This document shows positions 3,611-60,900 of a stretch of DNA of 64,000 nt, one piece after another. The DNA lies in NCBI RefSeq assembly GCF_046119375.1, contig NW_027362769.1, positions 124,434,001 through 124,498,000 of the forward strand, read 5' to 3'. The stretch is from Phyllobates terribilis. Lineage: Eukaryota. The position numbers were made by a program, and so were the translations under genes. The notes beneath the pieces are model-generated. The model was not told where the DNA came from and did no database searches. It worked only from the letters and a program-made list of their open reading frames with translations. Within the stretch, counting starts at the first letter, position 1. The number at the start of each line of letters is the position of its first letter.

Positions 3611-4577
3611 TGTGGCACCCCAGGGGTCTGGTTTTCCACAGTAATGTAATGTTATGTCTGAGAGCAGGTGGGAGGTCCTTTGGTCAGGGATCCTGTGCAT
3701 GCCACACCTCCTGCCCAGTCTTGGGAGGGGAAGAACTTCCCCTGTATAAACCCTGGGCTGAGGCAGGGTTAGTCAGTCAAGGAGAGTAGAGACAAGAAAC
3801 AGCAGAAGCAATACTACTACGAGTCAGGGGCTGGCAGCTGCAGAGCTCGCCCTGACTGAGAAGCTTTCTTACCGGACCCGGCGTCCGAGGCTGTGGGGAC
3901 TAACTCTTACCCAGCAGCAGAAGCCGACCGGCAGGGGATTTCAGGTCCTCAGGCCCAGAAACCCGAAGGCACGGTCACACGCGTGGGACCAGCACCGCCA
4001 TCGTGGAGCGGAAGCCATTAGAAGGCCCCGAGTCACCGGCCATACGGGTGAGCACCACACGGTACACTCAGGGACGTGGGCTACTTATATCTGCTTCTAG
4101 CAAGGTAGCCAGAAGAGTACAGTCAGTTTGGGAGGCCTACAACTCCGCCTGGCCAGGGGAGATCCCATCTGCTCAAGGACTGACCAGGCCCCGTTCACTA
4201 GCAAGTACTCCGGGAGGGTCTATCGTTGTTACCAGTAAAGACCCTGAATTACACCGCACCGTCTCTGAGTGGTTCCTGCTACCCCCATCATCCACATCTG
4301 CTGCCCTGAGGCCATACCCCTCCCGTTGGGGGTTATACCATCTACGCTGCACCATCCATCCACCGGCCTCAGCGGACTGTCCTGCAGCGGCAGCTCCATA
4401 GCTGCATTCAACGGGTGGCGTAGTCGTCCTGCATCTACCGCTGTTACATCGCCGCTCAGTTTGACTCCCTGGGCACGGACCGGGTCACCGCCACGAGACT
4501 ACAACCCTCAAGAGATCCGGCTCCGGGTAAGCTCCCGCGTGCGCAACGCAGCGCGACACAGGCCCAGGGGCGCGTCA
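3611..4577 (+). repeat. 3' LTR of Gypsy A copy 1 (967 bp)
   Basis: TG...CA termini; short terminal inverted repeat; TATA-like TATAAA near 3745; AGTAAA near 4235; similar to the LTRs at 25770 and 32655. Confidence 0.93.
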
Positions 4578-6161: not shown

Positions 6162-6752
6162 AGTAAAACTCTGAAAATGTAGATAGTTACCCCTGGGGTA
6201 TTATATAGCATTGAATTAAATTGTACTGTAGTATTGTGTGTTTTCATGCATATGTATATTATTTTGTGCTTTGCTTTATTATTGAACAGTTTAAGTTATA
6301 TGGACACTTTCCCTAATGACTTCCTTTATTGTTTACCTAAGAACTGCGTGGCTGAGGACTGTGTGCAGCCCAAAAACTGCTTCTTGTATATAATTGCACT
6401 CCCTGGAGTGCCCCTTCAGGTGACCTCAGAAGGAAAACCTGTCTGGAGTGGCTCTACTGGAGGTCCAACTCGGGATCTTCATGCCCTGAAGCCACCCCAG
6501 GGCCTACGTTGAGGGTTTGGGACAGGTCCCTCAAACCACCAAGTACTCTACCCTGTGAGATGGACATCCTATCTGGGAACCTCACCATAAGAGACTTGAA
6601 TTCTGAGGACGCTTTGTACCTGTTTATGTTATTATGCAACGTTTAAGAAATGTGCCTCCCATAAAGGGAAGAGTTATTGTATTGTTCATGTTTACTATTG
6701 TTGTTTTAAAATATACTTCAGCCCGGGAGGGCTGAGCTTTGCTAGGGGGGAA

Positions 6753-7878
6753 TGTGGAGCCCAGCTATGCTTGGTACCACAGATCCTAGAAGTGTGCATT
6801 GATGGAATCCTCCACAAGAGGCCCCCATAAACATTCACACATCTCCACCTTCCACCTCATACCAGCAGAGGGAGCCCGTTAGGGATATAAATAGGGAAGG
6901 TGGAGCTAGGCAGCTCAGTTCCTCTGAAGAGTTCCTGCAGTAGAGAAGCTTGAGATAGGTCAGTCTGCAGTGGAGCTCAATCTAGTCTAGAGAACTCAGT
7001 TAATAGTTCAGCAGTGGAGCACGAGGCTCCAGCTAGCTAGATTCAGGGAGCTCAGTTACAGCTTAAGGTGTGCCGGCGCCATAAGATCGGTGAAGCGCGG
7101 AAAGCTGCCGTTAGTGTGTATAGCATAGTTTGGGCCCGAGTAGGTCGAAGGCGAGTGGAGAGTTAGTAACATAGGGGGCAGAGGAGCTTAACTAGCTCAC
7201 CCCGAAGAATTTACCGGACACCGGTTCCGAGCTTACCGGGATCTCCAAGACCCAGTAAGGCATAACCGGAATCCCTGGAAGACTACAGGTCCCAGGTTCA
7301 CCAGAGAGCTGATACGTAACAGAGCCAGGAGACACATAGACCCCGTAAGCTGGGAGCTACCACACCGTCAGCCGGTGCAGGACAGAGACAAAGTTAGGCC
7401 TAGCTCCAGGCAGGTCAGAAACTTACTACGCAGAGGCAAGAAGCAGGAGGCCCTACACCCGCTCATTGGGGAGGATCCTGATATGCACCCTTCACCCTAC
7501 AGTGCTCCGGGATGTGCCTGAGTTTCCACCAGTAAAAGGTACAGAAGTGACTACCGTGTCCGTCCCTGTTCTTGCTGTGACCCGGCTGGGTTTCGCCTGC
7601 CCTGCATCCCCTGCTCCATACGCTGCCCTGAGGCCTAGCTCCACCTGTGGGGAGCTATACCATCGAGCTGCCTTGTCACCGGCCTCAGTGGACTGCCGCA
7701 GCGCTGGTGATTCTCACTAGAAACCACAGGTGGCGTCACGAACTTTCATAAAATTTACAAACAATCCCCTTTTAAAAGCTGACCCCAGGGTACGGACCCG
7801 GGAGCCGACCACCGCGACATCCCCAAAGGCCAGGCAAAGGCCCGGGTACCGAGTCATCCCCATCGCCTGGGCTAGTCA
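6753..7878 (+). repeat. 3' LTR of Gypsy B (1126 bp)
   Basis: Follows the PPT; TG...CA ends with inverted repeat AGCCC/GGGCT; TATA-like ATATAAA near 6885; AGTAAA near 7531. Confidence 0.88.
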
Positions 7879-18900: not shown

Positions 18901-21283
18901 CGGGGGACACACACGCTGAGGAGACTGGAGCAGCGGCGGTACAAAGAGCGGTGAGTATTTTTGTTTTCTTTTTTTGTAAATCAATGGGGACATTATACTG
19001 TTTGGAGAGCAGTGTGGGGGCCCTAAAAGAGTTTGCAGGGCTATATGGAGCCATTATAATATTTGCATGGATGGGAGTGGGCCATTATACTATTTGGAGA
19101 TTTGGAGGGCAATGTTGGGGCCATTAAGCAGTTTGCATGCAAGACTATCTGGGGGCCATTATAGTATTTGGAGGGCTATGTGGGGGCCATTAGACTGTTT
19201 GGAGGGCTTGGTGGGAGTTAATATAATGTTTGGAGCTATGTGGGGGTTATTATACTGTTTGCAGGGCTATGTGGGGGCAATATTACAGTTTGGAGGGCTA
19301 TGTGGGGGCCATGATAAAGTTTGCAGGGCTAGGTGTGGGCCATTATACTATTTGGTGAGCTATGTTGGGGCCATTATGCAGTTCACAGGATTATATGGGG
19401 GCCATTATAGTATTCGGGGGGCTATATGGGGGCCATTAGACTATTTGGAGGGCTATGTGGGAGTTAATATACTATTTGGAGGGCTATATAGATAGGGTCA
19501 TTACACTCTTTGGGCGCTATGTGGGGCCATTATACTGTTTGCAGGGATATGTGGGGGCAATTATAGTGTTTGGAGGGCTATGTGGGAGTAAATATACTGT
19601 TTGGGCACTATGTGGGAGCCAATACACTGTTTGGAGCTATGTGGGGGCAATTATACTGTTTGCAGGGCTATGTGGGGTGACTATACAGTTTGGAGAGCCA
19701 GTGTGGTTCATTATACAGTGTGGGGGCCATTTTACATTGTGGAGGGTTGTGTTGGGCTACCATACTGTGTATAGGATTGTGTAGGGGCCACCATACTGTG
19801 TGGAGGGGAGTAAGGGTCATAAAACTGTATGGAGGATTTTATACTGTATCGAGGGCTGTGTCGGGGCCATCATACTGTGTTGGGGTCACTGTGGGGGTAT
19901 TATACTTTGCGGGATTCGGGGTAATGTAGGGTCATCAAACTATGCGTCTAGAGGCTGCTGTGAAAGATCTCACTGTGCGGGGTATAACACTGTGTTTGGA
20001 GGGCACTTTTGTTGGCATCATACTTTATGGGGGCCATGAAAGTGGTATCTTAATGCATAGGAACACTAAGGGGCTTCAACTGGAGGAAAATCATTATGTA
20101 AAGGCTACACCGTTGTGGGTTGTGCTCTTCTGTGACCCTTCGGATTATTCAGTTTTTTTAATTTTTGGGAGGCCAATTGGGATTTCTGCTATGGGGCCCC
20201 ATGATTGCTATGCATGCCCCTGGATGGGTACTTACCGGGCATTCCAATGAGGGGGCCGTACATTCCAGTACAGACAGGACTTCTTGGGCCAGCTCTTTTA
20301 TAAAAGCCAAATCTCCATTTTGAGATTTTTCTTCAGCCTATAAAGAAAAAAAGAAAAAGTAAAATCCTGAGTTTATGAGAAAGGGCACAATGGAGCCGGC
20401 CATTGTATGTGACATCTGCTCCTGTGTCTGCTGATACAATGTCTACATATCTGGGGATTCATCATAATTTACACTGGAGGAAAGAAAAAGCTTCTCTCCC
20501 ACCATTATTATCTATTATTATAGAGAAGTTTTGTGCGGAGTGTCCGCCATTTACCTGGTGTAGTAATGTCCTGATGTTGTAATGTAAATCCGTCAGATAG
20601 TCTGAGGTAAGACGACGTTGTCGGTGTTTGGACAGGCAGTCCCTTACTAGCTCCACCATCAGCTGGTGAGTGAAGCTAAGGACGCCATCGGGTGGTAAAA
20701 GCTCAATGTCAGGGCGATTATTGATAACAATCCCCCATAGGGCTTGTACCTGAAGATTGTCCAGAAGTAATTCAGCCATAGCTAGAAATTGCAAGTGCGA
20801 TCAGTCACTATGGAATAGCGAGAAACTGCAAGTGCGCTCAATCACTATGGAATAGCTAGAAACTGCAAGTGCGATCAGTCACTATGAAATAGCGAGAAAC
20901 TGCAAGTGCGCTCAATCACTATGAAGCCAACAAAGGCACCCGTGACACAGCGTACATTGTATAAGTAGGGACTGTGAGCCGTGATGTCATAATGGGTGAC
21001 CATCATCAGTGATGTCATCACGGAATCTTGTGATAGAATCTTAAAGCTGAAAAAGCGACAATGTTGAACATACACTAATGATATACTCTGTCATATTATG
21101 GGGAATATTGTATATATTTAGTATCTCATGTATTTTTTTTTCACCATAGAACATTTAACTCACTGGTTGCAGAGTTTACTATTAAAAACTATAGAAGAAT
21201 TAATGATATGTGACTTAAGTGATAAATCATTTACATCATTAATATTAATCGTTGTGTCTCTGGAAAGTTCCATCCTTTACCAT
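12529..21283 (-). CDS. Divergent MAST-family (microtubule-associated Ser/Thr kinase-like) gene, ~664 aa, 18 coding exons, no PDZ
   Basis: Phase-compatible GT-AG exons: 21281-21283 (ATG, tentative), 20555-20749, 20236-20337, 17863-17948, 17100-17308, 16566-16704, 16343-16475, 15993-16158, 15788-15886, 15430-15552, 15167-15279, 14988-15079, 14507-14580, 14112-14224, 13925-14016, 13442-13515, 12842-12935, 12529-12616. The sum is 1995 nt with no internal stop. The N-terminus and last ~45 aa are less certain. Confidence 0.85.
13442..14224 (-). CDS. C-terminal three-exon module, copy 2 (113+92+74 nt)
   Basis: [15 protein letters not shown]... / [13 protein letters not shown]... / [24 protein letters not shown]; same exon sizes as copy 1, open frame, GT-AG sites intact. 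Confidence 0.8.
14507..15279 (-). CDS. C-terminal three-exon module, copy 1 (113+92+74 nt)
   Basis: [15 protein letters not shown]... / [13 protein letters not shown]... / [24 protein letters not shown]; GT-AG sites present; net phase 1 to 1. Confidence 0.8.
15430..15552 (-). CDS. MAST-like AGC-kinase C-terminal exon
   Basis: [40 protein letters not shown]; 123 nt, phase 1 to phase 1, canonical CAG/GTAAGT sites. Confidence 0.9.
15788..17948 (-). CDS. MAST-like kinase domain, six exons
   Basis: ISSGAFG|AVYLVRH, FAMKK, ERDIL, MEYAG|GDC, HRDLKPE|[48 protein letters not shown]; all splice phases join. Confidence 0.93.
18175..18638. mobile_element. TTAA-flanked MITE (T2/Kolobok-like)
   Basis: TTAA-AAGGAATCTGTCA ... 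TGACAGATTCCCT-TTAA terminal inverted repeats with an internal palindromic arrangement. Confidence 0.8.
18743..20222. mobile_element. Non-autonomous DNA transposon (Harbinger-like) with degenerate ~39-bp internal repeats
   Basis: Starts CAGGGGCGTAAC and ends ...GCATGCCCCTG; the interior is a degenerate CTATGTGGGGGCCATTATACTGTTTGGAGGG array. The superfamily call is from memory. Confidence 0.55.
20236..20749 (-). CDS. MAST-like exons encoding the DUF1908-like pre-kinase region
   Basis: 20555-20749 reads ...[47 protein letters not shown]; 20236-20337 reads [34 protein letters not shown]; both resemble MAST DGVLSFIHHQIIELARDCL / AYERSES..AF. Confidence 0.85.
20780..20927. repeat. 37-bp minisatellite x4 in alternating A/B order
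   Basis: Units start at 20780, 20817, 20854, 20891 (AGCTAGAAA(T/C)TGCAAGTGCGATCAGTCACTATG(G/A)AAT alternating with AGCGAGAAACTGCAAGTGCGCTCAATCACTATG...). Confidence 0.92.
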
Positions 21284-23855: not shown

Positions 23856-25769
23856 CAGAGGCGGACACACTGCTGGTGCAGTCGGTGCAGCTGCACCAGG
23901 GCCCAGAGGCAAGGGGGGCCCATGGATGTAGGGGCATACTGCTCATGACAGAAGACCATGCAACCGCTATGGGGCCTCTCAGTCAAGGGGCCCGATTTTG
24001 ATTGACCCAATGTCACGCATAGTGTAGGAAAGACAAAGTGCAACACGAAGGGATGAGGGGAAGGGAGCCCAGACACTAAGGAAAGGGGAGATATCACCCT
24101 GTCTCCCCTACCATCCCTATATTGGTTCCTCACCAATCTCCGAACAGGAATCCTAAGTCCTGTCTTTCCCTAGAGCTTGGCCCTGGATAGGTAAGGGTGG
24201 GGATGAGCACTGGTCAGTCCCCACTAAACAACTAAAGACAAAAAGGAAAACAAACACAGGTGGAAGCAACTTAGCTTGAGCCGACTTCAGAGAGATTTAA
24301 GAAGTCGTCTGTAATGTCAAACAAAGTAACCTTCTGCAACTAGCTGCGGAACGACTGTCTGCTGCATCTGACACACCCGTGACACCCATCCACTCCCACC
24401 TGCCATACAGTGGTTTCAACATCCACTGTTAAAAAAAATGTCAATCTTTTAAGTACGAGTTTTACAGGATACCATTGTATGGAATAATGCAGCGTACTAC
24501 AATATTCCATACTTTAATTTGTAGAATTCGACCAGATACAAGATGGTATCGATACCAGACATATAATGTAATATAATATAATATATACTTGGTTGGGCTC
24601 TGCCAGTTCCATCATTAATCACGTAACCACGAGGATGCACTTTGCACACTTGCTGTCATGTGCCAACTAGAGAGTCAGCCACGTCCTACAGTGTTCTAGT
24701 CACTGACACTAGCTGTCACTTGACTGCAAGTATGATTGTGCTGGAACCAGCAGAACCGAATCCTAACGGAGATATACACTGCTCAAAAAAATAAAGGGAA
24801 CACTCAAATAACACATCCTAGATCTGAATGAATGAAATATTCTCATTGAATATTTTGTTATGTACAGAGTTGAATGTGCTGACAACAAAATCACACAAAA
24901 ATCATCAATGGAAATCAAATTCATTAACCAATGGAGGCCTGGATTTGAAGTAACCCCCAAAATTAAAGTGGAAAAACACACTACAGGCTGATCCAACTTT
25001 GATGTAATGTCCTTAAAACAATTGAGGCTCAGTACCGTGTGTGGCCACCACGTGCCTGTATGACCTCCCTACAACGCCTGGGCATGCTCCTGATGAGGTT
25101 GCGGATGGTCTCCTGTGGGATCTCCTCCCAGACCTGGACTAAAGCATCCGCCAACTCCTGGACAGTCTGTGGTGCAACATGACGTTGGTGGATGGAGCGA
25201 GACATGATGTCCCAGATGTGCTCAATCGGACTCAGGTCTGGGGAATGGGCGGGCCAGTGCATAGCTTCAATGCCTTCATCTTGCAGGAGCTGCTGACACA
25301 CTCCAGCCACATGAGGTCTGGCATTGTCCTGCATTAGGAGGAACCCAGGGCCAACCGCACCAGCATGTGGTCTCACAAGGGGTCTGAGGATCTCATCTTG
25401 GTACCTAATGGCAGTCAGGCTACCTCTGGCGAGCACATGGAGGGCTGTGCGGCCCTCCAAAGAAATGCCACCCAACACCATTACTGACCCACTGCCAAAT
25501 CGATCATACTGAAGAATGTTGCAGGCAGCAGATCGCTCTCCATGGCATCTCCAGACTCTGTCACGTCTGTCACATGTGCTCAGTGTGAACCTGCTTTCAT
25601 CTGTGAAGAGCACAGGGCGCTAGTGGCAACTTTGCCAATCCTGGTGTTCTGTGGCAAATGCCAAGCGTCCTGCACGGTGTTGGGCTGTGAGCACAACCCC
25701 CATCTGTGGACGTCGGGCCCTCATACCAACCTCATGGAGTTGGTTTCTAACCGTTTGTGCAGACACATG

Positions 25770-26767
25770 TGTGGCACCCCAGGGGTCTGGTTTCCACAGT
25801 AACGGCAATGTTATGTCTGAGAGCAGGTGGGAGGTCTCTTGGTCAGGGATCCTATGCATGCCACACCTCCTGCCCAGTCCTGGGAGGGGAAGAACTTCCC
25901 CTATATAAACCTGGGGCTGAGGCAGGGTTAGTGAGAAGAGTAGAGAGAAGAAGAGAAGCAGTAATAGGAAAGGAAGACCAGGAGCTCTGTGGGAATCGTG
26001 CTAAGAAGAGGTCAGGGGCTGGTAGCTGTAGAGCTCGCCCTGATCGAAGCTTTCTCACCGGACCCGGAGTCCGAGGCTGTGGGGACTAACTTTGCCCCAG
26101 CAGCAGAATCCGTCAGGCAGGGGATTTCCGGTCCTCTGGCCAAGAAACCCGAAGGCACGGTCACACGCATGGGACCATCACCGCCGTCTTGGAGCGGAAG
26201 CAAATAGAAGGCCCCGAGTCACCGGCCATACGGGTGAGCACCACACGGTACACTCAGGGACGTGAGCTACTTTTACCCGCCTCTAGCAAGGTAGCCAGAA
26301 GAGTACAGTTAGTTGGGAAGGCCTACAGCTCCGCCTGGCCAGGGGAAATCCCATCTGCTCAAGGACTGACCAGGCCCCATTCGCTAGCCAGTACTCCGGG
26401 AGGGTCTGTCTTTGTCACCAGTAAAGACCCTGAACTACACCGTACCGTCTCCGAGTGGTTCCTGCTACCCCCATCATCCACGTCGGCTGCCCTGAGGCCA
26501 TACCCCTCCCGTTGGGGGTTATACCATCTCCGCTGCACAACTGTGTCACCGGCCTCAGCGGTCTACCCTGCAGCGGCGGCTCCATAGCTGCATTCAACGG
26601 GTGGCGTAGTCGTCCAATATCTACTGCTACGTACACCGCCACTCAGTCTGACTCCCTGGGCACGGACCGGGTCACCGCCACAAGGACTACCACCCCTAAT
26701 AGATCCGGCTCCGGGTAACCCCTGCGTGCGCAACGCTACATCAGAAAGCAGGCCCAGGGGCGCGTCA
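25770..26767 (+). repeat. 5' LTR
   Basis: TGTGGC...GCGTCA; TATATAAA near 25902; AGTAAA near 26420. Confidence 0.96.
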
Positions 26768-26772
26768 ACTTT

Positions 26773-26791
26773 TGCCGTAGTCGGCAGGATT
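26773..26791 (+). promoter_or_regulatory. Primer-binding site for tRNA-Ser (one mismatch)
   Basis: TGCCGTAGTCGGCAGGATT versus TGGCGTAGTCGGCAGGATT, the complement of the recalled vertebrate tRNA-Ser 3' end AAUCCUGCCGACUACGCCA; lies 5 nt after the LTR. Confidence 0.85.
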
Positions 26792-27202
26792 TCGTGCCCG
26801 CAACCACCGGGTACTGCGTGCCTGAAAAAGACTGTTCAAACTTACCAGTGGTGAAGATTCCCGCCATCCGGCGCCATCTTCTACCTTCTTCCCGCCATCC
26901 GCGAAGTTTTCCCGCCATCCGGCGCCATCTTCTGCCTTCTTCCCGCCATCCGTGGAGTTTTCCTGCCGTTGGACGCCATCTTGAGGACGCCGCGCGGGAA
27001 GAAGAGGGGCGTGGACTCCGAAAGCGCGCGAGAACTGAAGCCCCGCCTCACGTCCGGACGTTGCGTAAGGTCCTGGAAGGAGCCCAGCCGACGTCACAGG
27101 AGCGCGACGGAAGGTCCTCAACCCTGACGATCCACTGCGGAGCCGCGGCCTACGGAAGAGGATCATCGCAAGGTAGGCCACGGTCCACTAGGGGGGAGAA
27201 GG

Positions 27203-28183
27203 ATGTCGGATACGGAGGAGAGCTTCACCGCTCCAACCCCCGCCAGCGCCACCGCTGTTGCGGTCATGCCTTTCACCATGCCCTATATCCCGGGGGCAGC
27301 CTGGCTACCCCAGTACTCAGGGGAGTCACATACCCTGCATGACTTTAGAGAAAAGCTGGATAGCCTCTTCCAGGTGTACCCCCTCACAGAAGAGCAAAAA
27401 GTGAGCATTCTGGTGGCCCAATTAACCGGGGCAGCCCAAAGGGAGGTAAAGTCCTGGCCACCTGGGGGGAGGACTGTCGCAGGGATACTAACCCGGCTGA
27501 GGGACACCTTTGATACCCGCACCTCAGCCGAGATCAAGCTTAGATTCTACGGGTGCAAGCAGCGAGCACAAGAGAGTATAAGGGACTATGCTCTGAACCT
27601 ACAAGAGGCCCTGAGAGCCATTAAGCAGACCGACCCTGATGGCGTGGGAGACGAGGACAGGCTGTTGACTGAACAATTTATAGAGGGTTTATATTGCAAT
27701 GCCCACCGAACTCAGTTGCGGGCAATGGCCTTACAGGACCCTCATCTGGGATTTGCACAGTTCAAGGACAGAGCCATCCGGGTGCTCCGAGAACCAGCAC
27801 CAGGTGGCGTTGTGACCCACAGACGCCCCACTACCACTTATCACCAGGAGGCGGCGCCCTTGTCGGCAGGGCCTGTGGGAACTGATGCGCAGGCTTTGAG
27901 CAATGACCCGGCTCCAGACCTGCACCATCAGGTCCAAGAGCTAGCTAAAAGCGTTGCTGCGCTAACCAGAACTGTGCAGTCTTTACAGGTTTCCACTTCG
28001 GGGAAGATCCAGCTGGCATCCGGACCGGAGGACATCCCGTGGCGTCGACCAAGGAGGACCCCACCGGCCAGAGGAAGACCCAGCGACCGATACAACGAGG
28101 ACGGACAACCCATCTGCCGCCGCTGCAATCAACCCGGACATATGGCAAGGTACTGTCCTTTAAACTGGCCCAACCTAGGGTAG
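27203..28183 (+). CDS. Gag, 326 aa
   Basis: Open ATG-to-TAG frame; C-terminal CCHC knuckle CRRCNQPGHMARYC. Confidence 0.93.
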   Translation: MSDTEESFTAPTPASATAVAVMPFTMPYIPGAAWLPQYSGESHTLHDFREKLDSLFQVYPLTEEQKVSILVAQLTGAAQREVKSWPPGGRTVAGILTRLRDTFDTRTSAEIKLRFYGCKQRAQESIRDYALNLQEALRAIKQTDPDGVGDEDRLLTEQFIEGLYCNAHRTQLRAMALQDPHLGFAQFKDRAIRVLREPAPGGVVTHRRPTTTYHQEAAPLSAGPVGTDAQALSNDPAPDLHHQVQELAKSVAALTRTVQSLQVSTSGKIQLASGPEDIPWRRPRRTPPARGRPSDRYNEDGQPICRRCNQPGHMARYCPLNWPNLG

Positions 28184-28199
28184 AGGGCCAACCCCTAGG
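28159..28199 (+). promoter_or_regulatory. Putative -1 ribosomal frameshift signal (gag-pol)
   Basis: T TTA AAC in gag frame at 28159-28165; 8-nt spacer; stem CCTAGGG (28174-28180)/CCCTAGG (28193-28199); pol is in the -1 frame. Confidence 0.75.
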
Positions 28200-31100
28200 A
28201 AAAAGATCATCAGGCCCATCGAACTGGCGTGACAAATACGTGGGAGGACGTCCAGTCTTGCCTGTGGTACTGGATGGCATTCCTATGAGTGCCCTACTGG
28301 ACACCGGGTCACAGGTCACCACCATCCCGTACGTGCTCTTCAAGCAGTACTGGAATGACTCGGATATAACCCGCTACCCTGTCGACGACTTGAGTATCAT
28401 CGCCAGCAATGGTCAGCCCGTGCCACAGATCGGATTTAAAGAGGTGACCATTAAAATCGGTAGAGTCGAACTGGCAGCACAGGGACTGATCATTGTAGAC
28501 ATTGACAAACACGAGAGTCACCCAAAGATAACTCTAGGAACTAATGTGATTGAAAATTGTCTTGCAGAAGTGATTTTCATTTTACAGCAGGTTGCCAAGA
28601 ACGCCAGCTCCGGCGAGCAGCGAGTGCTCCAGAAAGAGATCCGGGCACTGATGCGACAGCAACAGGTGGAACTCTCCGGTGGTGAGATTGGTAGCGTGAG
28701 AATGTGTGACCCTTTCCCTATTGCCATGCCCCCAAAAAGTGAAATGATGATTTGGTGCCGGGCAGCTATTGGTCTGAGAGGTAGAGATTACCAGGCAATG
28801 GTAGAACCAGTTTACTCAGACAGTAGGCCCACCATTTTGACAGCACGGGGGGTGGTCAATGTACGCCATGGGAGGGTGCCCGTTCGCGTAGTGAATATCG
28901 GGAAGAGGGAAGTGTACCTGCCCAGGTATGCCACGCTGGCCAAATTGTATACCATCAATCGAAATTCCATACAGTCCATAGAACCCTTGCCTCCATCTTC
29001 TCCGGAGGAAGGTAACGGCTCTGAGAAAACAATGGAGGACTGGTGTCAGCAACTACATTTGGGTACTGACTCCACTCCCTCACACCAGAAACAGGGAGTC
29101 TATCGGGTGGTTCAAGAGTATGAGAGAGTGTTTAGTAAACACCCGTTAGACTTCGGGCGAGTCAAGGGGGTAGAACACCACATCCCCACGGGAGATCATC
29201 CTCCCATAAAGGAGAGATACCGACCCGTACCCCCTGCACATTACCAACACGCCAAGGGGATGCTCAGAGACATGAAGGAGGCTGGGGTAATCAGGGATAG
29301 CTGTAGCCCCTGGGCAGCTCCACTAGTCTTGGTTAAAAAAAAAGACAACACCATGAGAATGTGTGTAGATTACCGGAAAATCAACCATATCACACACAAA
29401 GATGCGTACCCTTTACCAAGGATAGAGGAGTCTTTGGCTGCTTTAAGATCTGCTAATTTCTTCTCCACTTTGGATCTTACTAGCGGGTACTGGCAGGTTC
29501 CTGTAGCAGAGGCGGACCGGGAGAAGACCGCATTCACCACCCCGATGGGACTTAGCGAGTTTACCTGCATGCCGTTCGGACTCTGCAACGCACCAGGAAC
29601 CTTCCAACGGTTGATGGAATGCTGTCTGGGACACCGAAACTTCGAGACGTTCCTGCTATACCTGGACGATGTCATCGTCTATTCCAAAACCTACGAGGAT
29701 CACCTGAAACACCTGGCGGAAGTGTTCGAAGCTCTGGCAAACTACGGCCTAAAGGTGAAACCCTCCAAGTGTCACCTCCTGAAACCAAAGGTGCAGTACC
29801 TGGGACACGTGGTGAGCGCTGACGGAGTGGCTCCCGACCCTGATAAGATCACCGCAATTAAGGAATGCCAAGTCCCTCCAGTGTAAAGGAAGTGCGGCAG
29901 TTCCTAGGGTTGGTAGGCTACTACCGCAGATTCATTCCCGGTTTCACCAAAAAGGCAGCTCCTATGCAGGACCTCCTGATAGGCCAGTCCCGGAAGGCCA
30001 AGAACCAGAAGCCGCCCTTCAGATGGGAGAAGTTAGAAGAAGAGTCCTTTCGCCAGCTGAAGATGGCCCTCACGGGGGATGAAATCCTGGCATACCCTGA
30101 TTACAGCCAGCCCTTTATCCTCTACACCGACGCCAGTAACATTGGGCTAGGAGCCGTACTGTCCCAGACCCAGCAGGGGAAAGAATGGGTAATTGCTTAC
30201 GCCAGCCGAAAACTGAGACCCACCGAAAGAAACCCTGAGAATTACAGCTCATTCAAGCTGGAGTTCCTGGCAGTGGTGTGGGCAGTCACCGAACGCTTTA
30301 AGCACTACCTCGCCTCTTCCCGGTTCACCGTGTACACGGATAACAACCCGTTGACGCATCTGGACACGGCAAGGCTCGGTGCCCTGGAGCAGAGATGGAT
30401 GGCCCGCCTGTCCAACTATGAGTTCACAATCAAATACCGGGCAGGACGCTCCAATACCAACGCGGACGCCCTGTCTAGGATGCCAAACCTACCAGACGAG
30501 GGTGAGGATTCAGAAGATTTGGAAGAGGTCGAACTCCCTGCGTTCCACCGTCATGGGACTGTCCAGTATTCCCACCGTGTAAGGGGTAAGCAAGCCGCTA
30601 CGTTCAACCCCTTACCTCACTACAACTGGGCGGAAACGCAAGACAGTGACCCTGCCGTCCGGCTGGTGAAGGAGATGCTGACTCAGCCAGAAGCTCGCCT
30701 TGACCCGGACGCTCCGGAGGAGACCAAGCAACTGTGGGCTGAGAAGAGTCGACTGTTCATTTACAAGGGGAAGTTGTGCCGCAGAATGGTTAACTCCCGG
30801 ACGCATGAACTGGTCTGGCAAGTAGTGGTGCCAAGAAGGGACGCAGCTATGGTGATGGAGGCATACCACGACGGGGCTGGGCACTTCGGATGGAAGAAGC
30901 TGGAGTTCCTGCTGCGCGGGCGGTTCCATTGGGTAGGCATGAGAGGAACCATCGAGAGGTGGAGCAGAGACTGTGGCCCATGCAACCTAAGAAGGAAGGA
31001 CCGTGCCAGCCAGAAGACCCCCCTTCAGTCCATCGTCACCCGGCAGCCGTTGGAACTGGTGGCCTTGGATCATGTAAAACTGACCCCAAGCAGAAGTGGC

Positions 31101-32294
31101 TACGTCTACGCATTAACCATCGTGGACCACTACTCCCGGTTCTTGGTTGTCGTCCCCGTCAAGGACTTAACGGCTCAAACAGCAGCTAGAGCCTTCCAGC
31201 AGCACTTCTGCCGTCCACACGGCTACCCAGAGCAGGTGCTGACGGACCAGGGACCTGCCTTTGAAGCGGAGGTCTTCCAAGAGTTCTGTACTCTGTATGG
31301 CTGCCGGAAGATCAGGATGACACCCTATCATCCGCAAACTAATGGACTTTGTGAGAAAATGAACCAGGTAGTGATAGATCTTCTAAAAACATTGCCCCTG
31401 GAAGAACGCAGTCTGTGGCCTGAGAAGCTGCCCGACCTGGTGGACCTATACAACTACATCCCTGTAGGTTCCACCAACTGTACCCCGGCTTACCTAATGA
31501 GGGCAAGGCCTGGTAAGCTACCTGTTGACCTGGAGATGGGAGTCCTGACACCCGAGGACACTTCACCGGAAGCAGACTGGGACACAGAGAGGCAGCAGCA
31601 GTACCGGAAAGTACAGGAGAGCGTGGAGCGAAGTCTCTGTCTGGCTAGGGAAAGACAAGAGAAAACTTACAACCAGTATGCTCCCGCTGTTCCCCTGGTA
31701 CCCGGAGAGCAGGTCTTGAAGAGGAAGAGACGGCTCCACAAGTTGGACGACCAGTGGGAGAAGGACCCGTACACCGTACTGCCCTCAAGCCACGACAACC
31801 CAAAGGTTTGTACCATCAGTAAAGACGGAGGGGAAACCACAGCCATTGTATCCCGGGATCACCTGAAGAAGTGTCCCGAACAGCTACGGAACCCAGAAGG
31901 GGAACAAAAAGACCCTCGACCCGTAGAGGAAAGGGAAGATATGGTTAGTACTGTGCTCGGAGACTTCCCTCGGTCCTGGACTCAAGTCAATGGTGCAGTT
32001 GTGGTACCCGTCCTCACGTTCCTCCAACCAGCATCCCAAGTGCCTACGGAGCAACAGGTAGAGCTGGGAGAGCAGCCGGTCCAGGAGGCAAGGGACTCCA
32101 CCCAAGCAGAACAGGAGGATCAACCCTCTGCTTATAGTGAGCCTGCCGTACCCCTAGTGAGCCAAAGAGCCCATAGACAGCTGCCCAGTTTACCCTTGAC
32201 AGCTCCTACACCCTGTAGTTCAGGGCCAGACAGTCAGCTCCGTAGGTCCACTAGGGCCACTAGAGGCCAGTTACCCGCACGTTGGAGGATTTGA
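28159..32294 (+). pseudogene. Pol (protease, RT, RNase H, integrase) with one frameshift at ~29867
   Basis: Protease LLDTGSQVT; RT YLDD. Copy 1 has GAATGGCCAAG where this copy has GAATGCCAAG (1-nt deletion), splitting Pol into ORFs 28039-29886 and 29865-32294. Confidence 0.9.
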
Positions 32295-32654
32295 AGTGTT
32301 TAAATTGTTTTATTTGTGGTCACCTGTCTGTTACTTGTAAATAATTATGTGTTTCTAGTTATTTTTAGGAGTCCTTGGTGGATTTACCGGGAATCCTTGT
32401 ACAATTGGTTGGAGCGTAACCTAGGAATGGACTAAAGACTGTTAAGGACTCGGGGCAGGACAGACCCCTACCTGGTTACGTCTCCCTGTTTGGTGAAATG
32501 GACACCTTGCTTTTCTTCCAAAACTGCACCCGGTTGCGGATACGCCGTAACCATCTTTATGTGTTTTTCTTATTGTATTATTATTGTTTATACCTTGTTA
32601 TGTTTTTCTAAAAATATGTTTAGTCCCGGAGTACTAAATTTCACTAGGGGGGAA

Positions 32655-33652
32655 TGTGGCACCCCAGGGGTCTGGTTTCCACAGTAACGGCAATGTTATG
32701 TCTGAGAGCAGGTGGGAGGTCTCTTGGTCAGGGATCCTATGCATGCCACACCTCCTGCCCAGTCCTGGGAGGGGAAGAACTTCCCCTATATAAACCTGGG
32801 GCTGAGGCAGGGTTAGTGAGAAGAGTAGAGAGAAGAAGAGAAGCAGTAATAGGAAAGGAAGACCAGGAGCTCTGTGGGAATCGTGCTAAGAAGAGGTCAG
32901 GGGCTGGTAGCTGTAGAGCTCGCCCTGATCGAAGCTTTGTCACCGGACCCGGAGTCCGAGGCTGTGGGGACTAACTTTGCTCCAGCAGCAGAATCCGTCA
33001 GGCAGGGGATTTCCGGTCCTCTGGCCAAGAAACCCGAAGGCACGGTCACACGCGTGGGACCAGCACCGCCGTCTTGGAGCGGAAGCAAATAGAAGGCCCC
33101 AAGTCACCAGCCATACGGGTGAGCACCACACGGTACACTCAGGGACGTGGGCTACTTTTACCCGCCTCTAGCAAGGTAGCCAGAAGAGTACAGTTAGTTG
33201 GGAAGGCCTACAGCTCCGCCTGGCCAGGGGAAATCCCATCTGCTCAAGGACTGACCAGGCCCCATTCGCTAGCCAGTACTCCGGGAGGGTCTGTCTTTGT
33301 CACCAGTAAAGACCCTGAACTACACCGTACCGTCTCAGAGTGGTTCCTGCTACCCCCATCATCCACGTCGGCTGCCCTGAGGCCATACCCCTCCCGTTGG
33401 GGGTTATACCATCTCCGCTGCAGAACTGTGTCACCGGCCTCAGCGGTCTACCCTGCAGCGGCGGCTCCATAGCTGCATTCAACAGGTGGCGTAGTCGTCC
33501 AATATCTACTGCTACGTACACCGCCACTCAGTCTGACTCCCTGGGCACGGACCGGGTCACCGCCACAAGGACTACCACCCCTAATAGATCCGGCTCCGGG
33601 TAACCCCTGCGTGCGCAACGCTACATCAGAAAGCAGGCCCAGGGGCGCGTCA
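32655..33652 (+). repeat. 3' LTR
   Basis: Preceded by PPT CACTAGGGGGGAA 32642-32654; near-identical to the 5' LTR. Confidence 0.96.
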
Positions 33653-34235
33653 CATGCACATTTGTGGCCTGCTAGAGGTCATTTTGCAGGGCTCTGGCAG
33701 TGCTCCTCCTGTTCCTCCTTGCACAAAGGAGGAGGTAACGGTCCTGCTGCTGGGTTGTTGTCCTCCTATGGCTCCCTCCACATCTCCTGGTATCTGCTCC
33801 ATGCTCTGGACACTGTGCTGACAGACACAGCTACCCTTCTTGCCACAGCTCGCACTGATGTGCCATCCTGGATGAACTGCACTACCTGAGCAACTTCTGT
33901 GGGTTGTACTGTAGACACCGCCTCATGCTACTGTACGTCTAGGGGTGAGAGCAATGGCAAAATGAAAAAGTGACCAAAACATCAGCCAAAAAGGATGAGA
34001 ACAGAGAAATGGTCTGTGGTCACCACCTGCAGAACCACTCCTTTATAGGTGGTATCTTGATATTTGCCTATCATTTCTACCAGTTGTCTGTTCCATTTGC
34101 ACAACAGCAGGAGAAATTGATTCACAATCAGTGTTGCTTCATAACTGGACAGGTAGATTTCACAGAAGTGTTATTGACTTGGAGTTACATTGTGTTGTTT
34201 AAGTGTTCCCTTTATTTTTTTGAGCAGTGTATATA

Positions 34236-35872
34236 CAGTATATATTTGGACAGAGACAACATTTTTCTAATTTTGGTTCTAGACATTACCACAATGAATT
34301 TTAAATGAAACAATTCAGATAAAGTTGAAGTTCAGACTTTCAGCTTTCATTTGAGGGTATCCACATTAAAATTGGATGAAGGGTTTAGGAGTTTCAGCTT
34401 CTTAACATGTGTCACCCTGTTTTTAAAGGGACCAAAATTAATGGGACAATTGACTCCAAGGCTATTTCATGGACAGATGTGGGCAATCCCTTCGTTATGT
34501 CATTCTCAATTAAACAGATAAAAGGCCTGGAGTTGATTTGAGGTGTGGTGCTTGCATTTGGAAGGTTTTGCTATGAAGTAAACATGCGGTCAAAGGAGCT
34601 CTCCATGCAGGTGAAACAAGCCATCCTTAAGCTGCAAAAACAGAAAAAAAACATCAGAGAAATTTCTACAATATTAGGAGTGGAAAAATCTTAAGTTTGG
34701 TACATCCTGAGAAAGAAAGAAAGCACTGGTGAACTCATCAATGCAAAAAGACCTGGACACCCACGGAAGACATCAGTGGTGGATGATTGCAGAATAATCT
34801 CCATGATGAAGAGAAACCCCTTCACAACAGCCAACCAAGTGAACAACACTCTCCAGGAGGTAGGCGTATCAATATCCAAATCTACCATAAAGAGAAGACT
34901 GCATGAAAGTAAATACAGAGGGTTCACTGCATGGTGCAAGCCACTCATAAGCATCAAGAATAAAAAGGCTAAACTGGACTTTGCTAAAAAACATCTAAAA
35001 AAGCCAGCACAGTTCTGGAAGAACATTCTTTGGACAGATGAACCCAAGATCAACCTCTACAAGAATGATGGAAAGAGAAAAGTATGGCAAAGGCGTGGTA
35101 CAGCTCATGATCCAAAGCATACCACATCATCTGTAAAACACTGCTGAGGCAGTGTGATGGCTTGGGCATGCATGGCTGCCAGTAGCACTGGGTCACTAGT
35201 GTTTATTGATGATGTGGCACAGGACAGAAGCAGCCGAATGAATTCTGATGTATTCAGAGCCATACTGTGTGCTCAGATCCAGCCAAATGCAGCCAAACTG
35301 ATTGGTCGTCGTTTCATACTACAGATGGACAATGACCCAAAATATGAAGCCAAAGCAACCCTGGAATATTCAAGCAAAGAAGTGGAATATTCTTGAATGG
35401 CCAAGTCAGTCACCTGATCTCAACCCAATTGAGCATGCATTTCACTTGTTAAAGACTAAACTTCAGACAGAAAGGCCCACAAACAAACAGCAACTGAAAA
35501 CCACCGCAGTGAAGGCCTGGCAGAGCATCAAAAAGGAGGAAACACAGCGTCTGGTGATGTCCATGAGTTCAAGACTTCAGGCAGTCATTGCCAACAAAGG
35601 GTTTTCAACCAAGTACTAGAAATGAACATTTTGTTTACAATTATTTAATCTGTCCAATTACTTTTGGTCCCTTTAAAAACAGGGTGGCATATGTTAAGGA
35701 GCTGAAACTCCTAAACCCTTCATCCAATTTTAATGTGGATACCCTCAAATGAAAGCTGAAAGTCTGAACTTCAACTGCATCTGAATTCTTTTGTTTAAAA
35801 TTCATTGTGGTAATGTCTAGAACCAAAATTAGAAAAATGTTGTCTCTGTCCAAATATATATGGACCTAACTG
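34236..35872 (+). mobile_element. Second Tc1 family, full-length but decayed
   Basis: Long TIRs (left one lacks ~9 nt of its tip), TA flanks; transposase from ATG 34584 to 35619 with frameshifts; WTDE, QMDNDPK, SPDLNPIEH motifs. Confidence 0.92.
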
Positions 35873-36479
35873 TATGTAGTAGTGGCTAGGCCTGAGGTGG
35901 TCAGCGTTTTGGCGCATATCCTACCTCCTCCGAGGATTGCTGGATGTTTTCCTGCTACTATCCCAGTTCTATGACTCCCGTTAAAACAAAGCTTCAGGTG
36001 ATAAATGATGGATGAGGTGGTGGCAAAGGAGAAAGAGCAGGAGGAACAGGGACCATTCACATCAATATCAGGCCAGTCAACCACATATGTCTTGTAGGAT
36101 ATCTTTCTGCAACAAAAGGAGCGGTTCGGCTACACAGTTATAGAGCATTCAGTGAATGCAATGCCTACCAAAAATTTTGAGGCACTCCAATGCCCCTTGG
36201 AAATGACATGGAGGTCAGAGGGCCTTAACTAAACCGTTTTTTCCATTTATAGCAACTGGGTCTCCTGTACACTGTTGGCTTAAGCAGTGAATGGAAGGCT
36301 TTCCAAAAATTATGAGGAACTGCAATGCCCCTTGAAACAGACGTAGATTACAGCATACTAAAAACCTTCTACCCATTATTGGGGAGTGGGTCTCCCTTAG
36401 TTTTCGCCTTTGCATTGAAAAGCAAAAGCTGACTAAAATTAGAAGGAAATGCAATGACCGTTGGAAGAGTCGTGGAGGT

Positions 36480-39400: not shown

Positions 39401-39630
39401 CGCAGTAACTTAACAAGACGGTTTTAATGCCCTTTGGAAAAGTGGTGGAGGTCGCAGTTGCTTAGCAAGACAGTTTTAATGCCCCTTGGAAAAGTGGTGG
39501 AGGTCACAGTAGCTTAACAAGATGGTTTTAATGCCCCTCGGAAGAGACGTGGAGGTCGCAGTAGCTTAACAAGACAGTTTTATTGCCCCTCGGAAGAGAC
39601 GTGGAGGTTGCAGTAGCTTAACAAGACGCA
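36480..39630. repeat. 52-bp and 133-bp tandem arrays inside the hAT (split by a solo LTR)
   Basis: 52-bp unit AATGCCCCTTGGAAAAGTGGTGGAGGTCACAGTAGCTTAACAAGACGGTTTT (starts 36609, 36661, 36713); 133-bp unit starts at 36765, 36898, 37031; the array resumes at 39205. Confidence 0.93.
37515..39204. mobile_element. Solo LTR (1690 bp) with 5-bp TSD ACAAG
   Basis: TGTTAC...GTTACA termini; ACAAG at 37510-37514 and 39205-39209; internal ~34-bp GA-rich tandem repeats at ~37955-38420. Confidence 0.9.
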
Positions 39631-39897
39631 TCTTAAAAATATTATTCCCATTATTGGGGAGTGGGTCTCCCACTGTCTTTGCTTATGCCTTCCAAGCAAA
39701 AGCTGACAAAAATAAGGACGGAGGAACTTTTAATAATGGCAACACGGACCACGGTCACCCTGGTGGTATAGTGGTTGTGGAGGCTGAGGATAAGGAGAAG
39801 AACATAAAACAGCCAAAATGAGGAAGCGTATACCCATGTGTGGGTGTGAAGCGGTGCATGTGAATACACCTCCCGAAATAACACAGTGGATTTGACT

Positions 39898-45043: not shown

Positions 45044-47738
45044 GTGAATATCCATTGTACAATCTCCTGAAAGCGCAGACCCAGAAACGAATGGGAGAAA
45101 TTCAGGAGGCCATTAAAACACTACAGATGGCAATGAGCTTACCGGGAATGAAAAAGGCCGGATCTTCTCTAAAGGCAAAAGGAAGAAAAGTAGAAATCGG
45201 AGCAAGTGACCGAGTGTCCATCTTCCTGGAGCTCGTCGATTGTCATAGCATGAACGGGGAGCAGGTAACGGAGGGAAAGCGTCCACTCACTCCGGTCCCA
45301 TCACTACTAGAGAACTTGGTATCTTGTTTGTAAGAAATATACTTTGCTATCATTTACATACGGACGTATAAAGCCGCCTTTACAGTTACATGTCAGGTTT
45401 GCAATTGCATAGAAAACATCACTCCTCTCTGTAATCCGGTAATAAGAACTGTATACCTGCAGAGTATTAGTAAAAAGGGATTTATTGGCACATTTAAAGA
45501 GTAAAAAATAAAATGTATATGTGACGCGCCCCCTGGGCCATATTCTTTTAGGGGGAATATCCGGAGCCGGATCAGATGGGGGTTGTAGTCTTCCGAGTGG
45601 CTGTGACCCGGTCCGTGCCCAGGGTGTCAAACTCAGTTGTATGTGGCAGTCATACAGATGTTATAAGTTCTTTATTGTCGACTACGCCACCCGTTGTGTT
45701 GCGGTCACTGTGGCCGCCGCTGCAGCAGGGTCCGCTGAGGCTGGTGGTGTAGGTGCAGCTTTGGTGATATAACCCCCAACGGGTGGGGTATAGCCTCAGG
45801 GGGATCAGGTGCAGAGGATGGGAGTTGTGGTGATGCAGTGTAGACGGCAATCAGAGACAGAGTCGGGTTATGCAGTTTAGGATGTTTTACTCACTGCTGA
45901 TGTTCTGGTCACTCCAGCTTCGAGTGACCTCCCGAGCCGTGCTGCGTCCACCAGGTTCTGGATCCAGCCAACTCCCAAATAAGTCCGGAGCGTGACCCTG
46001 AGCTCTCCTTCAGTCCTTTCTCTGGCCGTCCCCACTATTGATCCACCCAGGTCCAGCTCCCTCGGGCCTTCTGTTGGGACACCCTTGGCCTTGGGTTCCC
46101 TGACCCTCCTCGTGGTATGCCTTCGTGGTGGATGTGGTGGGTGACCGTGGCAAACGCTGCCCACGGTCTCCGGTCTCTGGCTGGGGAGTGTTTTTACCCC
46201 CACCAGCTTGGGTTCCGGTACCCTGTGCCGACTCTTCACCCGGGGATTTAAGTTGGGTTCTTGGAGTCCTTTTCTTCTGGTTCCCCCTCTGGGTCTCTCT
46301 CTCTCCTCTCTCACTCTGGGTCTCTCTTCTCCTCTGCTCCTGACTTTCTCTCTGCAACTGACCCTGTTCTTAGTTGGTGCCCACCTTATATACACCCTCT
46401 ATGTGTGAGCTCAGGTGACCAGCACCCAATGAGCTCCTATCTTTACCCAGGCTGCTCCCCCTATCTGCCCCTACACTACTTGGGATGTTCCACCCCCCTC
46501 CCACTCCAGCCAGGAACAGACTCGGTCGTACCTGCACATTTCTAAGTGGGAGTACCGTCGGTCTGCTCCTCGGAAATGGGATGTGTGTAGTGCATGCAGC
46601 CTACCGAGCTCAGTTCCACACTCCATCCTTACCTGGGAGTGGAATATCACACCTCTGGGTTGAGGTGCAATACCCCTGTAGCAGCCGAATCCTCAGGGTG
46701 CTACATATGTTTTAGGCCTTTTAATTCTGAGCAGATTGGTGAGGGACTGAGTCCTGAGACCCCCACACATCATTCAATAGGGTTGTGTGCTCAGTCAGGG
46801 GGTTGTGCGCTCAGCCGGGGTGGGGGGGGGGGTGTTTACGATCTGGCAGTAGTTCTGTGCTCCTATGACTTTTTAATTAATCCATACTCTGCTGTGCACT
46901 TGCTCTCCTGTCACCTGAGCTGCACACTCTTAAAAGTTTTTTTAAGCAATTGGCGGGGGGTGTCAGGACCTGGACCCCCACCTATCTGCTCAGATTTAAA
47001 GGGCGTAAAATATGTATAAAAAATTTACAAAAGTTTCTTTACACTTTAAATGTAAGATCCCCACAATCATAGATCATAAAAATGGAGAAAGTGTTTCAGC
47101 TCTGCAGTCCCTCTAAACTCTTTCCCTGCACCGCTGAAACTGGCCACCACTGTTTAGAGTAACATATTGATTGCTGAGGGTCCAACCGTTAGTACCCCCC
47201 ACTCATCCAGAGAACGGGGAAATGGCCTCTTCATTCTCATTCACAGTCTTCTGTGATGGTGCCAGAGGTCGGACCCCCATATCTTGCTCATAGTGGTCAT
47301 TATTATTGCCTTGCAGTCGGCCGACTGTGGCCACGGGTGCCGGATTATCAGATCTCCCCCAGGAGCTGCACTCTGAAAGCTGTTTTTTCTTAGGAGACAA
47401 CCACCTTTAATTTCCAGAATATTTTTCTTCTAGCGAGTGTGTTGCATCTGTCCTGCCTCTTATAATAAATCTTTTCCACTTTCCCTTTTATATCTACAGC
47501 ACGAAGCTGCCAAAGTCTTACAAGATGCAATCAATGAATTCTCCGGGACAGCGGAGGAGCTGCGCCTCATGATAGCCAACGCTGAGCTGGCCCTGTCTCA
47601 CGGGGACGTGGAACGAGCTTTGTCCATGCTCCGAAATGTTTCTCCAGAGCAGCCATATTTTGTCCAGACCAAGGACAAAATGGCTGAGGTATATCTCCAG
47701 CACAGGAAAGATAAGAAGCTCTATATCGGCTGCTACAG
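45044..47738 (+). pseudogene. TTC21B: Orphan partial duplicate of TTC21B: 5'-clipped mid-gene exon (45044-45264) and following exon (47500-47738)
   Basis: [35 protein letters not shown]...MNGEQ | [20 protein letters not shown]...[11 protein letters not shown] match TTC21B exons 14-15 as recalled (225 and 239 nt; here 221 and 239). Frames are open and GT/AG sites intact, but no flanking exons were found. Confidence 0.85.
45522..46705 (-). mobile_element. Solo LTR (family C, related to A; 1184 bp) with 4-bp TSD TATG
   Basis: Reverse strand TGTAGCACCC...GGGGCGCGTCA; TATG at 45518-45521 and 46706-46709; shares U5-region motifs with LTR A. Confidence 0.92.
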
Positions 47739-59457: not shown

Positions 59458-60900
59458 GTAAGATCATCAAAAATGGTGGCGTGAATGCCGAGTTCATTGT
59501 TCTAGTAAATGTCTTGCTATCGATGCAGTTTTACTTAACCCCTTAATAACATCTGACGTACTAATACGCGTCTGTGCCCTGGGACTTAAGAGCCAGACCC
59601 GTATTAGTATGTCATCGCGATCGCGCGCGCACACAGGCTGTGCGGGCGCGATCGCCGTCGGGTGTCAGCTGATTGTCACAGCTGACACCCGGTACTATGT
59701 GCAGATACTCACCTCCTCTTCCGGCTTCCAGCGCTGTCTGCAAAGGCTTCCCGGGTGTTGCCATGACGACCCGATGTCGTCATGACAGCATCCGGGTCAC
59801 CAGACAGCAGGAAGATTGTTTGGACATGCGCAGTGCATCTCCAAACAATCTTCTCACTGTGCAGCGCTGATAGCCTGTATGACACAGGGATGGTGCTGCA
59901 TTCCTGTGCCATGCAGGCGATCAGAGAAAAAAAAGTGAAAGTCCCAGAGTGGGACAAAGTAATAAAGTATAAAAACTGTCAGTAAGTGAAAAAAAAAAAA
60001 AAAATTGCAAAAATATATAAAAAAAAACTATAAAATAATCCACCAAAAATAAAAATATAATGTACCCATCAATAAATATTATTATAAAAAAAAAAAAATA
60101 ATAAAATAAAAGTACACATATTTGGTATCGCCGCGTCCGGAACAACCTGACCTATAAAACTGTCCCACTAGTTAACCCCTTCAATGAACACGGTAAAAAA
60201 AAAAAAAAAACTAAGCAAAAAACAATGCTTTATCACCATACCGCCAAATAAAAAATGGAATAACACGCGATCAAAAAGACAAATATAAATAAAAATGGTA
60301 CCGCTGAAAACGTCACCTCGTCCCGCAAAAAACAAGCTGACATACAGCTCCATCAGCCGAAAAATAAAAAAGTTATAGCTCTCAGAATAAAGCTATGCTA
60401 AAAAATATTTTTTTCTATAAAATTGCTCTTATTATGTAAAATTGCAAAACATAGAAAAACGATATAAATGTGGTACCGCTGTAAACGTACTGACTCAAAG
60501 AATAAAGCTGCCTTATCACTTTTACCACACGCGGAACAGAATAAAAAAAAAAAAAAAATTCCTGAATTGTTGGTTTTTGTTTATTCTGCCTCCCAAAAAT
60601 CGGAATAGAAAGCGATCAAAAAATGTCACGTGCATGAAAATGGCACCAATAACAACGTCAACTCATCCCGCAAAAAACGAGCCGTCACATGACTGTCTGC
60701 CAAAATCTGGAAAAATTATAGCTCTCAAAATATGGCGATGCAAAAACTAGATTTTACAAAAAATGCGTCTTTTTGTGTGTGACAGCTGTCGGTCATAAAA
60801 ACCCGATATGATTCTGGTATCACTGTAATCGCACCGACCCGAAGAATAAAGTCATCTAATCACTTATACCGCACGAGGAAAGGCGCAAAAAATAAACTCT

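Follow-up and report, generated by a model that had tools for sequence, protein, structure and literature searches.

The LTRs of a Gypsy lineage in the frog Phyllobates terribilis contain a second site that matches the CCA end of the element's own primer tRNA-Ser, and this site directly adjoins a predicted double-pseudoknot RNA module. The combination is real and specific, and no description of it was found in the literature covered, which lay outside the repeat databases (Repbase, Dfam), most subscription papers and supplements. As for its function, we infer a dock: there is about an even chance that the internal site acts at the RNA level to capture the primer tRNA without normally priming from it. 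The basis for this reading consists of the site itself, its match to host tRNAs, its concordance with the primer-binding site (PBS), the covarying helices beside it and the near absence of priming products.

The window, meaning the whole stretch of DNA that was analysed, covers 64,000 nucleotides of the 10.6 Gb genome (Table 1). Element A (25770-33652) shows the marks of Ty3/Gypsy elements, namely TG...CA LTRs with a short TSD, the domain order, and a PBS together with a polypurine tract. The 5' and 3' LTRs are identical in 987 of 997 aligned columns, and the nearest named proteins come from frogs. In terms of coding regions, gag has a weak PNMA match and a zf-CCHC zinc knuckle, while pol is split over two frames with the break near 29862-29886; the protease and PNMA matches fall under Pfam's cut-off. 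The TGTGGYG start of the LTR resembles that of CsRN1 in Table 3 of PMC3601003, a likeness that is a lead only and does not imply a clade assignment.

Table 1. Features of element A and of the related LTRs in the window (position 1 is the first letter of the window).
Feature	Position	Strand	Basis or remark
5' LTR of element A, TG...CA	25770..26767	+	TSD CATG at 25766-25769
TATA-like box of 5' LTR, element A	25902..25909	+	sequence
AGTAAA, putative poly(A) signal	26420..26425	+	sequence
Double-pseudoknot RNA module, predicted	26490..26601	+	32-copy alignment, RNAalifold, pair counts
Internal tRNA-Ser(AGA/UGA) site TGGCGTAGTCG	26602..26612	+	5' LTR of element A
Hypervariable G-poor linker, 3' of internal site	26613..26650	+	G fraction, alignment
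True 18-nt PBS, tRNA-Ser(AGA/UGA)	26773..26790	+	after 5-nt spacer
gag, then protease-RT, then RNase H-integrase	27128..32294	+	domain matches
Polypurine tract, element A	32646..32654	+	
3' LTR of element A	32655..33652	+	internal site 33487-33497; TSD CATG 33653-33656
3' LTR of second A-type element	3611..4577	+	internal site 4416-4426
3' LTR B	6753..7878	+	module 7626-7730, tRNA-Ser(CGA) site 7731-7743
Solo LTR C	45522..46705	-	TSD CATA; module and internal site 45679-45689

A B-type fragment running from integrase to the 3' LTR (4578-7878) begins directly after the A-type 3' LTR. The window itself sits among large blocks, nearly identical and repeated in tandem along a single contig (~122-131.4 Mb), where the LTR B stretch is found 40 times at 98-100% identity with a spacing of ~150-550 kb. 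Other features, spread over 55200-57300, 60886-61100, 18985-19900, 36150-39730 and 34239-35860, are a CT-rich microsatellite with an N run at 55330-55501, telomere-like repeats, tandem repeats of 31, 52 and 133 nt, and a 210-nt inverted repeat pair that resembles a MITE.

The motif TGGCGTAGTCG is found exactly at four places in the window and TGGCGTCACGAAC at one, in LTR B, all at the positions first given. Allowing at most one mismatch, six occurrences of TGGCGTAGTCG were observed against 0.37 in shuffles, in line with the claim that the motif is not there by chance. From motif start to LTR end there are 162, 166 and 166 nt in the A-type LTRs, 148 nt in LTR B and ~168 nt in solo LTR C.

TGGCGTAGTCG is the complement of the CCA, the discriminator and the 7-nt acceptor strand of tRNA-Ser(AGA/UGA), and TGGCGTCACGAAC complements the 3' end of the host tRNA-Ser(CGA). 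These tRNA ends had been proposed at the outset, and host genes with both of them were found. A pattern for the two tRNA-Ser ends fits 60 places in the genome; among the first 30, ARAGORN called Ser(AGA) three times (L140, L145, L154), Ser(TGA) twice (L141, L142) and Ser(CGA) once (L132), with a seventh call (Ala) falling on an element. All six tRNA-Ser genes end in the two expected 3' sequences. The remaining 24 of these 30 places are non-genes, in which TGG is followed by a tRNA copy of 22 to ~50 nt, nearly all at an LTR end; no long read-through copy in the internal context was found among them. Because the read-through copies sit at LTR ends and none internally, tRNA-Ser primes at the true PBS. 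Eight loci have a PBS with up to ~50 nt of tRNA-Ser copy, which is read-through beyond the usual 18-nt stop, and several of these are joined without a gap to a different LTR or internal sequence. Relatives bear such copies at the true-PBS position. The PBS at 26773 had been said to use the tRNA of TGGCGTAGTCG; the type is indeed tRNA-Ser(AGA/UGA), but the match is not exact, the PBS reading TGCCGTAGTCGGCAGGAT with one substitution at 26775.

The internal site and the PBS agree across the genome. An internal TAGTCG with a downstream LTR end and TGGCG gave 43,199 matches, and an internal TCACGAA, of the Ser(CGA) type, gave 2,115. When loci were picked by the internal site, the PBS was of the same type in 30/30 and 29/30 sampled loci, and the sole exception is a 3' LTR. 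Discordant pattern matches amount to 4 vs 43,199 for the Ser(AGA/UGA) type (two clean, two nested-LTR chimeras) and 1 vs 2,115 for the Ser(CGA) type, the latter a chimeric junction, with none genome-wide for discordant patterns at two other spacings. A perfect PBS of the commoner type has 63,008 genome matches, and when loci were picked by the PBS alone, 29 of 30 had the matching internal site (20 exact, 9 with one mismatch), the last one being interrupted by foreign DNA. In total, 143,750 LTRs retain the internal site, with 92 matches lacking it. Covariation between the internal motif and each element's own PBS, proposed at the outset as a check, was thus seen genome-wide. Judged from sequence, the internal site is specific for the element's own primer tRNA, and there is far more certainty about selection on the site to match that tRNA than about what precisely the site does. 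The comparison covers this one genome, since no relatives with DNA context were found in metagenome and viral contigs.

A non-autonomous set of at least 887 elements, group D, combines a B-like U5 and the LTR end GTCACA with Ser(AGA/UGA) sites and a short internal region in which no RT was detectable. Seven of its 887 matches fit the discordant pattern, of which three are clean singletons, one is unclear and three are not a PBS. As the three clean PBS switches are scattered singletons, switches occur but did not spread.

Other candidate types were rejected. A third isoacceptor at the PBS was sought in 270 variants, and the 100 among the matches listed were mutants of the two types or unrelated. 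An apparent new type of internal site turned out to be a single solo LTR with TSD CATG, which multiplied within another repeat to a few dozen copies that have the same flanks. In this passively copied LTR the internal motif has decayed. Of 30 loci in which the sixth base of the PBS is not T, 14 have the variant TGGCGCAGTCGG. There is no tRNA gene ending to fit it among the 60 tRNA-end places, and it may stem from a bias towards transitions, from a variant tRNA or from a tRNA modification. Copying of this change into the internal site copy by copy was dismissed, the corresponding C being present in 0 of the 14 loci.

The original prediction spoke of three diverged families. On the alignments and trees, LTRs A, B and C instead belong to a single Gypsy lineage as its subfamilies: ten Ser(CGA)-type elements have an RT with 80-88% aa identity to that of element A, the RT and integrase trees give one close lineage, and the U5 tree places solo LTR C inside the main A clade. 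Because the elements form one close lineage, the large concordance counts are not counts of independent events. U5 trees were built from 56 and 57 non-redundant copies with the motif masked. In 200/200 bootstrap trees two changes of isoacceptor are needed, with main A and group D accounting for one each. The predicted swap thus takes two steps on the best U5 tree; a single origin is not rejected (AU test of a single A clade, p 0.30 and 0.14). The stronger argument lies in how the site changed: about six letters were replaced as a block so as to fit the new tRNA end exactly, and have since been fixed. The conservation expected of a functional motif was also borne out in the alignment, where it is near-invariant while the next 30-50 nt diverge freely.

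These observations bear on whether the site is a relic without function, left from a former LTR end with its PBS and retained by descent. The CCACA ahead of the site mirrors the TGTGG of the LTR start and the independent switches are few; an older LTR end with its PBS may well be the origin of the internal site. Still, a relic would hardly stay near-invariant next to a freely diverging linker, have its block swapped to a new tRNA, and decay where it is copied passively, and the CA is equally explained as part of the pseudoknot helix. We consider a mere relic very unlikely.

The length of the match is restricted. Among 142 sites chosen on the exact 11-mer, 138 match the tRNA over 11-14 nt, none over 15-17 nt, and four over 18-20 nt, all of them rearranged singletons. 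In one subfamily the match at the internal site is 10 nt long.

A working back-up primer site would mean that both sites prime and that their progeny are equivalent, a part of them having a short 3' LTR. A CA stands 4-5 nt ahead of the TGG, as at the true LTR end, and the parts of the published work drawn on here describe priming from 10 nt in Ty1 (PMC4974528) and from 11 nt in Drosophila Gypsy (PMC1635307). However, two truncated copies aside, no short LTR ending at the internal CA with a TSD was found in the 49 of 92 site-less matches examined, which are mostly single microdeletions or unrelated sequence. The internal context followed by 18 nt of tRNA match occurs five times genome-wide, and a further search added no clean case. 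Two of the five are LTR-end deletions and two have neither a U5 extension nor a 3' LTR. L157 and L159, in which the 3' LTR is lost, may have arisen by priming or by deletion. In one element with an intact TCCA TSD, the 5' internal site is altered in register to exactly 18 nt and the 3' LTR is normal. This overwrite, seen in one element, is best explained by a tRNA that served as primer at the internal site and was then copied into the plus strand; it shows that the site can be loaded with tRNA, and priming there could be a route to co-switching.

Traces of internal priming thus come to three (L156, L157, L159), compared with 63,008 occurrences of a perfect PBS in the commoner type alone, and the long read-through copies seen at LTR ends are absent from the internal context in the 24 non-gene loci. 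Compared with a canonical PBS, the internal site lies 148-168 nt inside the LTR and does not prime routinely. A back-up primer site is accordingly quite unlikely, and as a routine route it is largely refuted. Of the original idea of a second primer-docking site, the docking role fits best; routine priming is not supported, given three traces genome-wide and no short LTR with a TSD among those examined.

The short match also weighs on the idea that 3' tRNA fragments find a decoy or a target in the site, or that pre-tRNA-guided silencing acts on it. Such fragments (tRF-3) work through the PBS (PMC7472051) and the fly PBS is a pairing partner of pre-tRNA (PMC13537249), according to the portions of these papers used here, and the site is present in every solo LTR. 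Under the seed rule in the same portion of PMC7472051, nt 2-7 of the fragment pair with the target. For an 18-nt fragment these correspond to nt 12-17 of the site, mostly unpaired here, where the match ends at nt 10-14 and covers nt 1-14 of the PBS at most. The fragment-target idea is weak because this seed pairing is absent. Pre-tRNA lacks the CCA, yet the TGG is invariant, and an element would gain little from keeping a silencing target. Taken together, this makes a fragment or silencing target highly improbable.

Immediately 5' of the internal site, ~112 nt are conserved in every aligned subfamily. The structure proposed for this module has five helices and two crossings. In element A, P1 is predicted to pair 26490-26499 with 26551-26561, P2 to form a hairpin at ~26501-26520, P3 to pair 26532-26536 with 26570-26574, and P4 to occupy 26576-26591, while the P2 loop (26508-26514) would pair with 26595-26601, immediately 5' of the TGG. 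The loop reads CCTGTGG, CCCGTGG or CCCGTTG and pairs with CCACAGG, CCACGGG or CAACGGG, respectively; the 3' strand of this helix has its last base directly ahead of the TGG of the internal site.

The module was evaluated on an alignment of 32 non-redundant copies with 34 pairs, giving 1,088 cells. We observed that 93.9% of the cells are paired, with slid controls at 34-54%. Double-sided changes are present in 15 of the 34 pairs, with at least one in each of the five helices, and the covariation score was reached by 0/500 shuffles; these covariation counts lean towards structure, because the sequences are related and the structure was derived from the same sequences. Two outer pairs are poor (columns 14-71 and 18-37). 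Without an imposed structure, RNAalifold recovers the helix between the loop and CCACAGG (7 bp). The folding strand is weakly fixed, because G-U cells exceed A-C cells modestly (39 vs 26). No Rfam match to the module was found in 8 loci, and two Rfam matches within those loci were set aside as chance.

In terms of placement, AGTAAA lies 130-245 nt upstream of the internal site in 56 of 60 loci, and the module 65-180 nt after this putative poly(A) signal. Going by AGTAAA alone, the module and the internal site would lie in U5. No poly(A) retrocopies that could place the cleavage site were found, and contigs of four sequencing runs span the LTR, such contigs being unable to show RNA ends. The G fraction falls from 0.24 in the module to 0.058 in the linker (60 loci).

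HDV-like ribozymes are nested double pseudoknots with a P3/L3 loop and a conserved catalytic C in J4/2. The order of crossing helices is similar, the module having two supported crossings. Unlike these ribozymes, it has neither a P3/L3 counterpart nor, in the 8 loci, an Rfam match, and its last junction reads ATT, AAT, ATA, ACA, AAA or GTG, with no conserved C. The predicted double-pseudoknot module next to the tRNA site did not figure in the original prediction and is new here.

A stem joining the internal site and the PBS showed covariation in 1/20 predicted pairs and is thus unsupported. Single-sequence folding, which cannot model pseudoknots, gave unpaired values for site and PBS of 0.23 vs 0.23 (A) and 0.35 vs 0.38 (B), so that the site is no more open than the PBS by this measure. 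In the last 120 nt of the LTR (26650-26767) there are conserved inverted motifs, CCCTGGG/CCCAGGG and GGACCGGG/CCGG, and RNAalifold folds the LTR-end GTCA onto the start of the PBS in 28-30 of 30 rows, without covariation.

The motif could also pair with the element's own RNA, its tRNA match being incidental. Main-A subfamilies do contain a GACTGCCAC-like sequence 25-50 nt downstream. Such pairing is unspecific: relative to shuffled linkers the mean z is -1.35 (A), -0.76 (B) and +0.5 (D), and the other motif finds nearly as good a partner in A linkers. We hold this reading to be extremely improbable. At the DNA level, the internal motif may help strand transfer, although such an aid leaves both the length cap and the adjoining RNA fold unexplained.

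The foremost alternative to the dock is a structural switch gated by tRNA, in which the bound tRNA would be a ligand and not a primer in transit. When free, the TGG would lengthen the pseudoknot helix by pairing with the 5' arm of P2, tRNA binding would free P2, and the RNA would toggle among translation, packaging and 3'-end processing. RNAalifold does pair the GG of the site with columns 22-23 in the P2 arm, which is a possible tRNA-free alternative fold, and P2, which covaries in 4/6 pairs, is mutually exclusive with it. The end of the match at the acceptor arm and the position of the module past the putative poly(A) signal also fit. On the other side, the alternative pairs vary on one side only, and a sensor has no need to follow the primer isoacceptor. 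The switch is for us a tentative reading, and rather an unlikely one. A similarly low but appreciable probability goes to the U5 module being a new class of structured RNA, at once a tRNA receptor with the acceptor arm as ligand, a cap that shields the tRNA 3' end from RT, and a switch of RNA fate. If true, animal mobile elements would have their first example of an RNA switch gated by tRNA, with more than 140,000 copies including solo LTRs.

Returning to the dock, tRNA-Ser would pair over 10-14 nt at the internal site, opening the acceptor stem only. With its T arm left intact, the bound tRNA would stack its 3' end on the 7-bp pseudoknot helix, which would block reverse transcriptase at the docked 3' end. 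The docked tRNA would then be co-packaged and passed to, or serve as a back-up for, the 18-nt PBS located 150-190 nt downstream. A swap of isoacceptor could proceed by mis-priming that alters the PBS, followed by rare internal priming that overwrites the site with a tRNA copy, after which concordant elements alone would spread. Capture or hand-off is the likely purpose of such a dock. Against the dock, the best tree shows the swap as only two changes and one origin is not rejected, no third isoacceptor turned up among the PBS variants listed, the stem joining the two sites is unsupported, and the overwrite is known from one element.

As for known systems, the T-box antiterminator presents a UGG beside a helix that pairs with the tRNA CCA end; it is bacterial, uses 4 nt and reads the anticodon. 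In contrast to those 4 nt, the frog site would invade the acceptor stem over 10-14 nt. HIV-1 has a primer activation signal and a U3 motif 9, LTR sequences that pair with the primer tRNA outside the PBS. These pair with T or anticodon stems, whereas the frog site is a second match to the CCA end. Like the second segments of bipartite PBS systems, the internal site resembles an auxiliary tRNA contact and is specific for the element's own tRNA; it departs from them in the feature that defines them, since it matches the same CCA end as the PBS and not a different part of the tRNA.

In the part of the source drawn on here (PMC4974528), auxiliary PBS segments of Ty1 and Ty3 pair with the T and D arms and aid packaging and initiation. 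Ty1 also has a 5' pseudoknot near the PBS that is needed for efficient reverse transcription, as described in the portion of PMC3681743 consulted. That pseudoknot is there a long-range pairing from R to gag, whereas the frog module is compact and ends at the duplicate CCA site.

In Drosophila Gypsy, according to the sections of Gabus et al. 2006 (PMC1635307) relied on here, a second 11-nt tRNA-Lys,2 site lies near the RNA 3' end, outside the LTR. It pairs with the anticodon and T stems, which allows a single tRNA to link the two sites, and cDNA synthesis can do without it. The frog elements share with it, on those sections, a second primer-tRNA site of ~11 nt that is not the priming one. They differ in that both frog sites match the CCA end and that the second one is inside the LTR, against a predicted pseudoknot.

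What is known of the choice of primer tRNA, its packaging and its timing comes from a handful of models in yeast, flies and retroviruses, whose extra contacts use other arms of the tRNA. In the frog lineage, a structured, tRNA-matching RNA module is present at more than 140,000 places of a giant genome, and the need for both sites to change at once would explain why primer switching is rare. If true, the fusion of a duplicate CCA-end site with a compact, covarying pseudoknot would be a solution unlike those of the known models.
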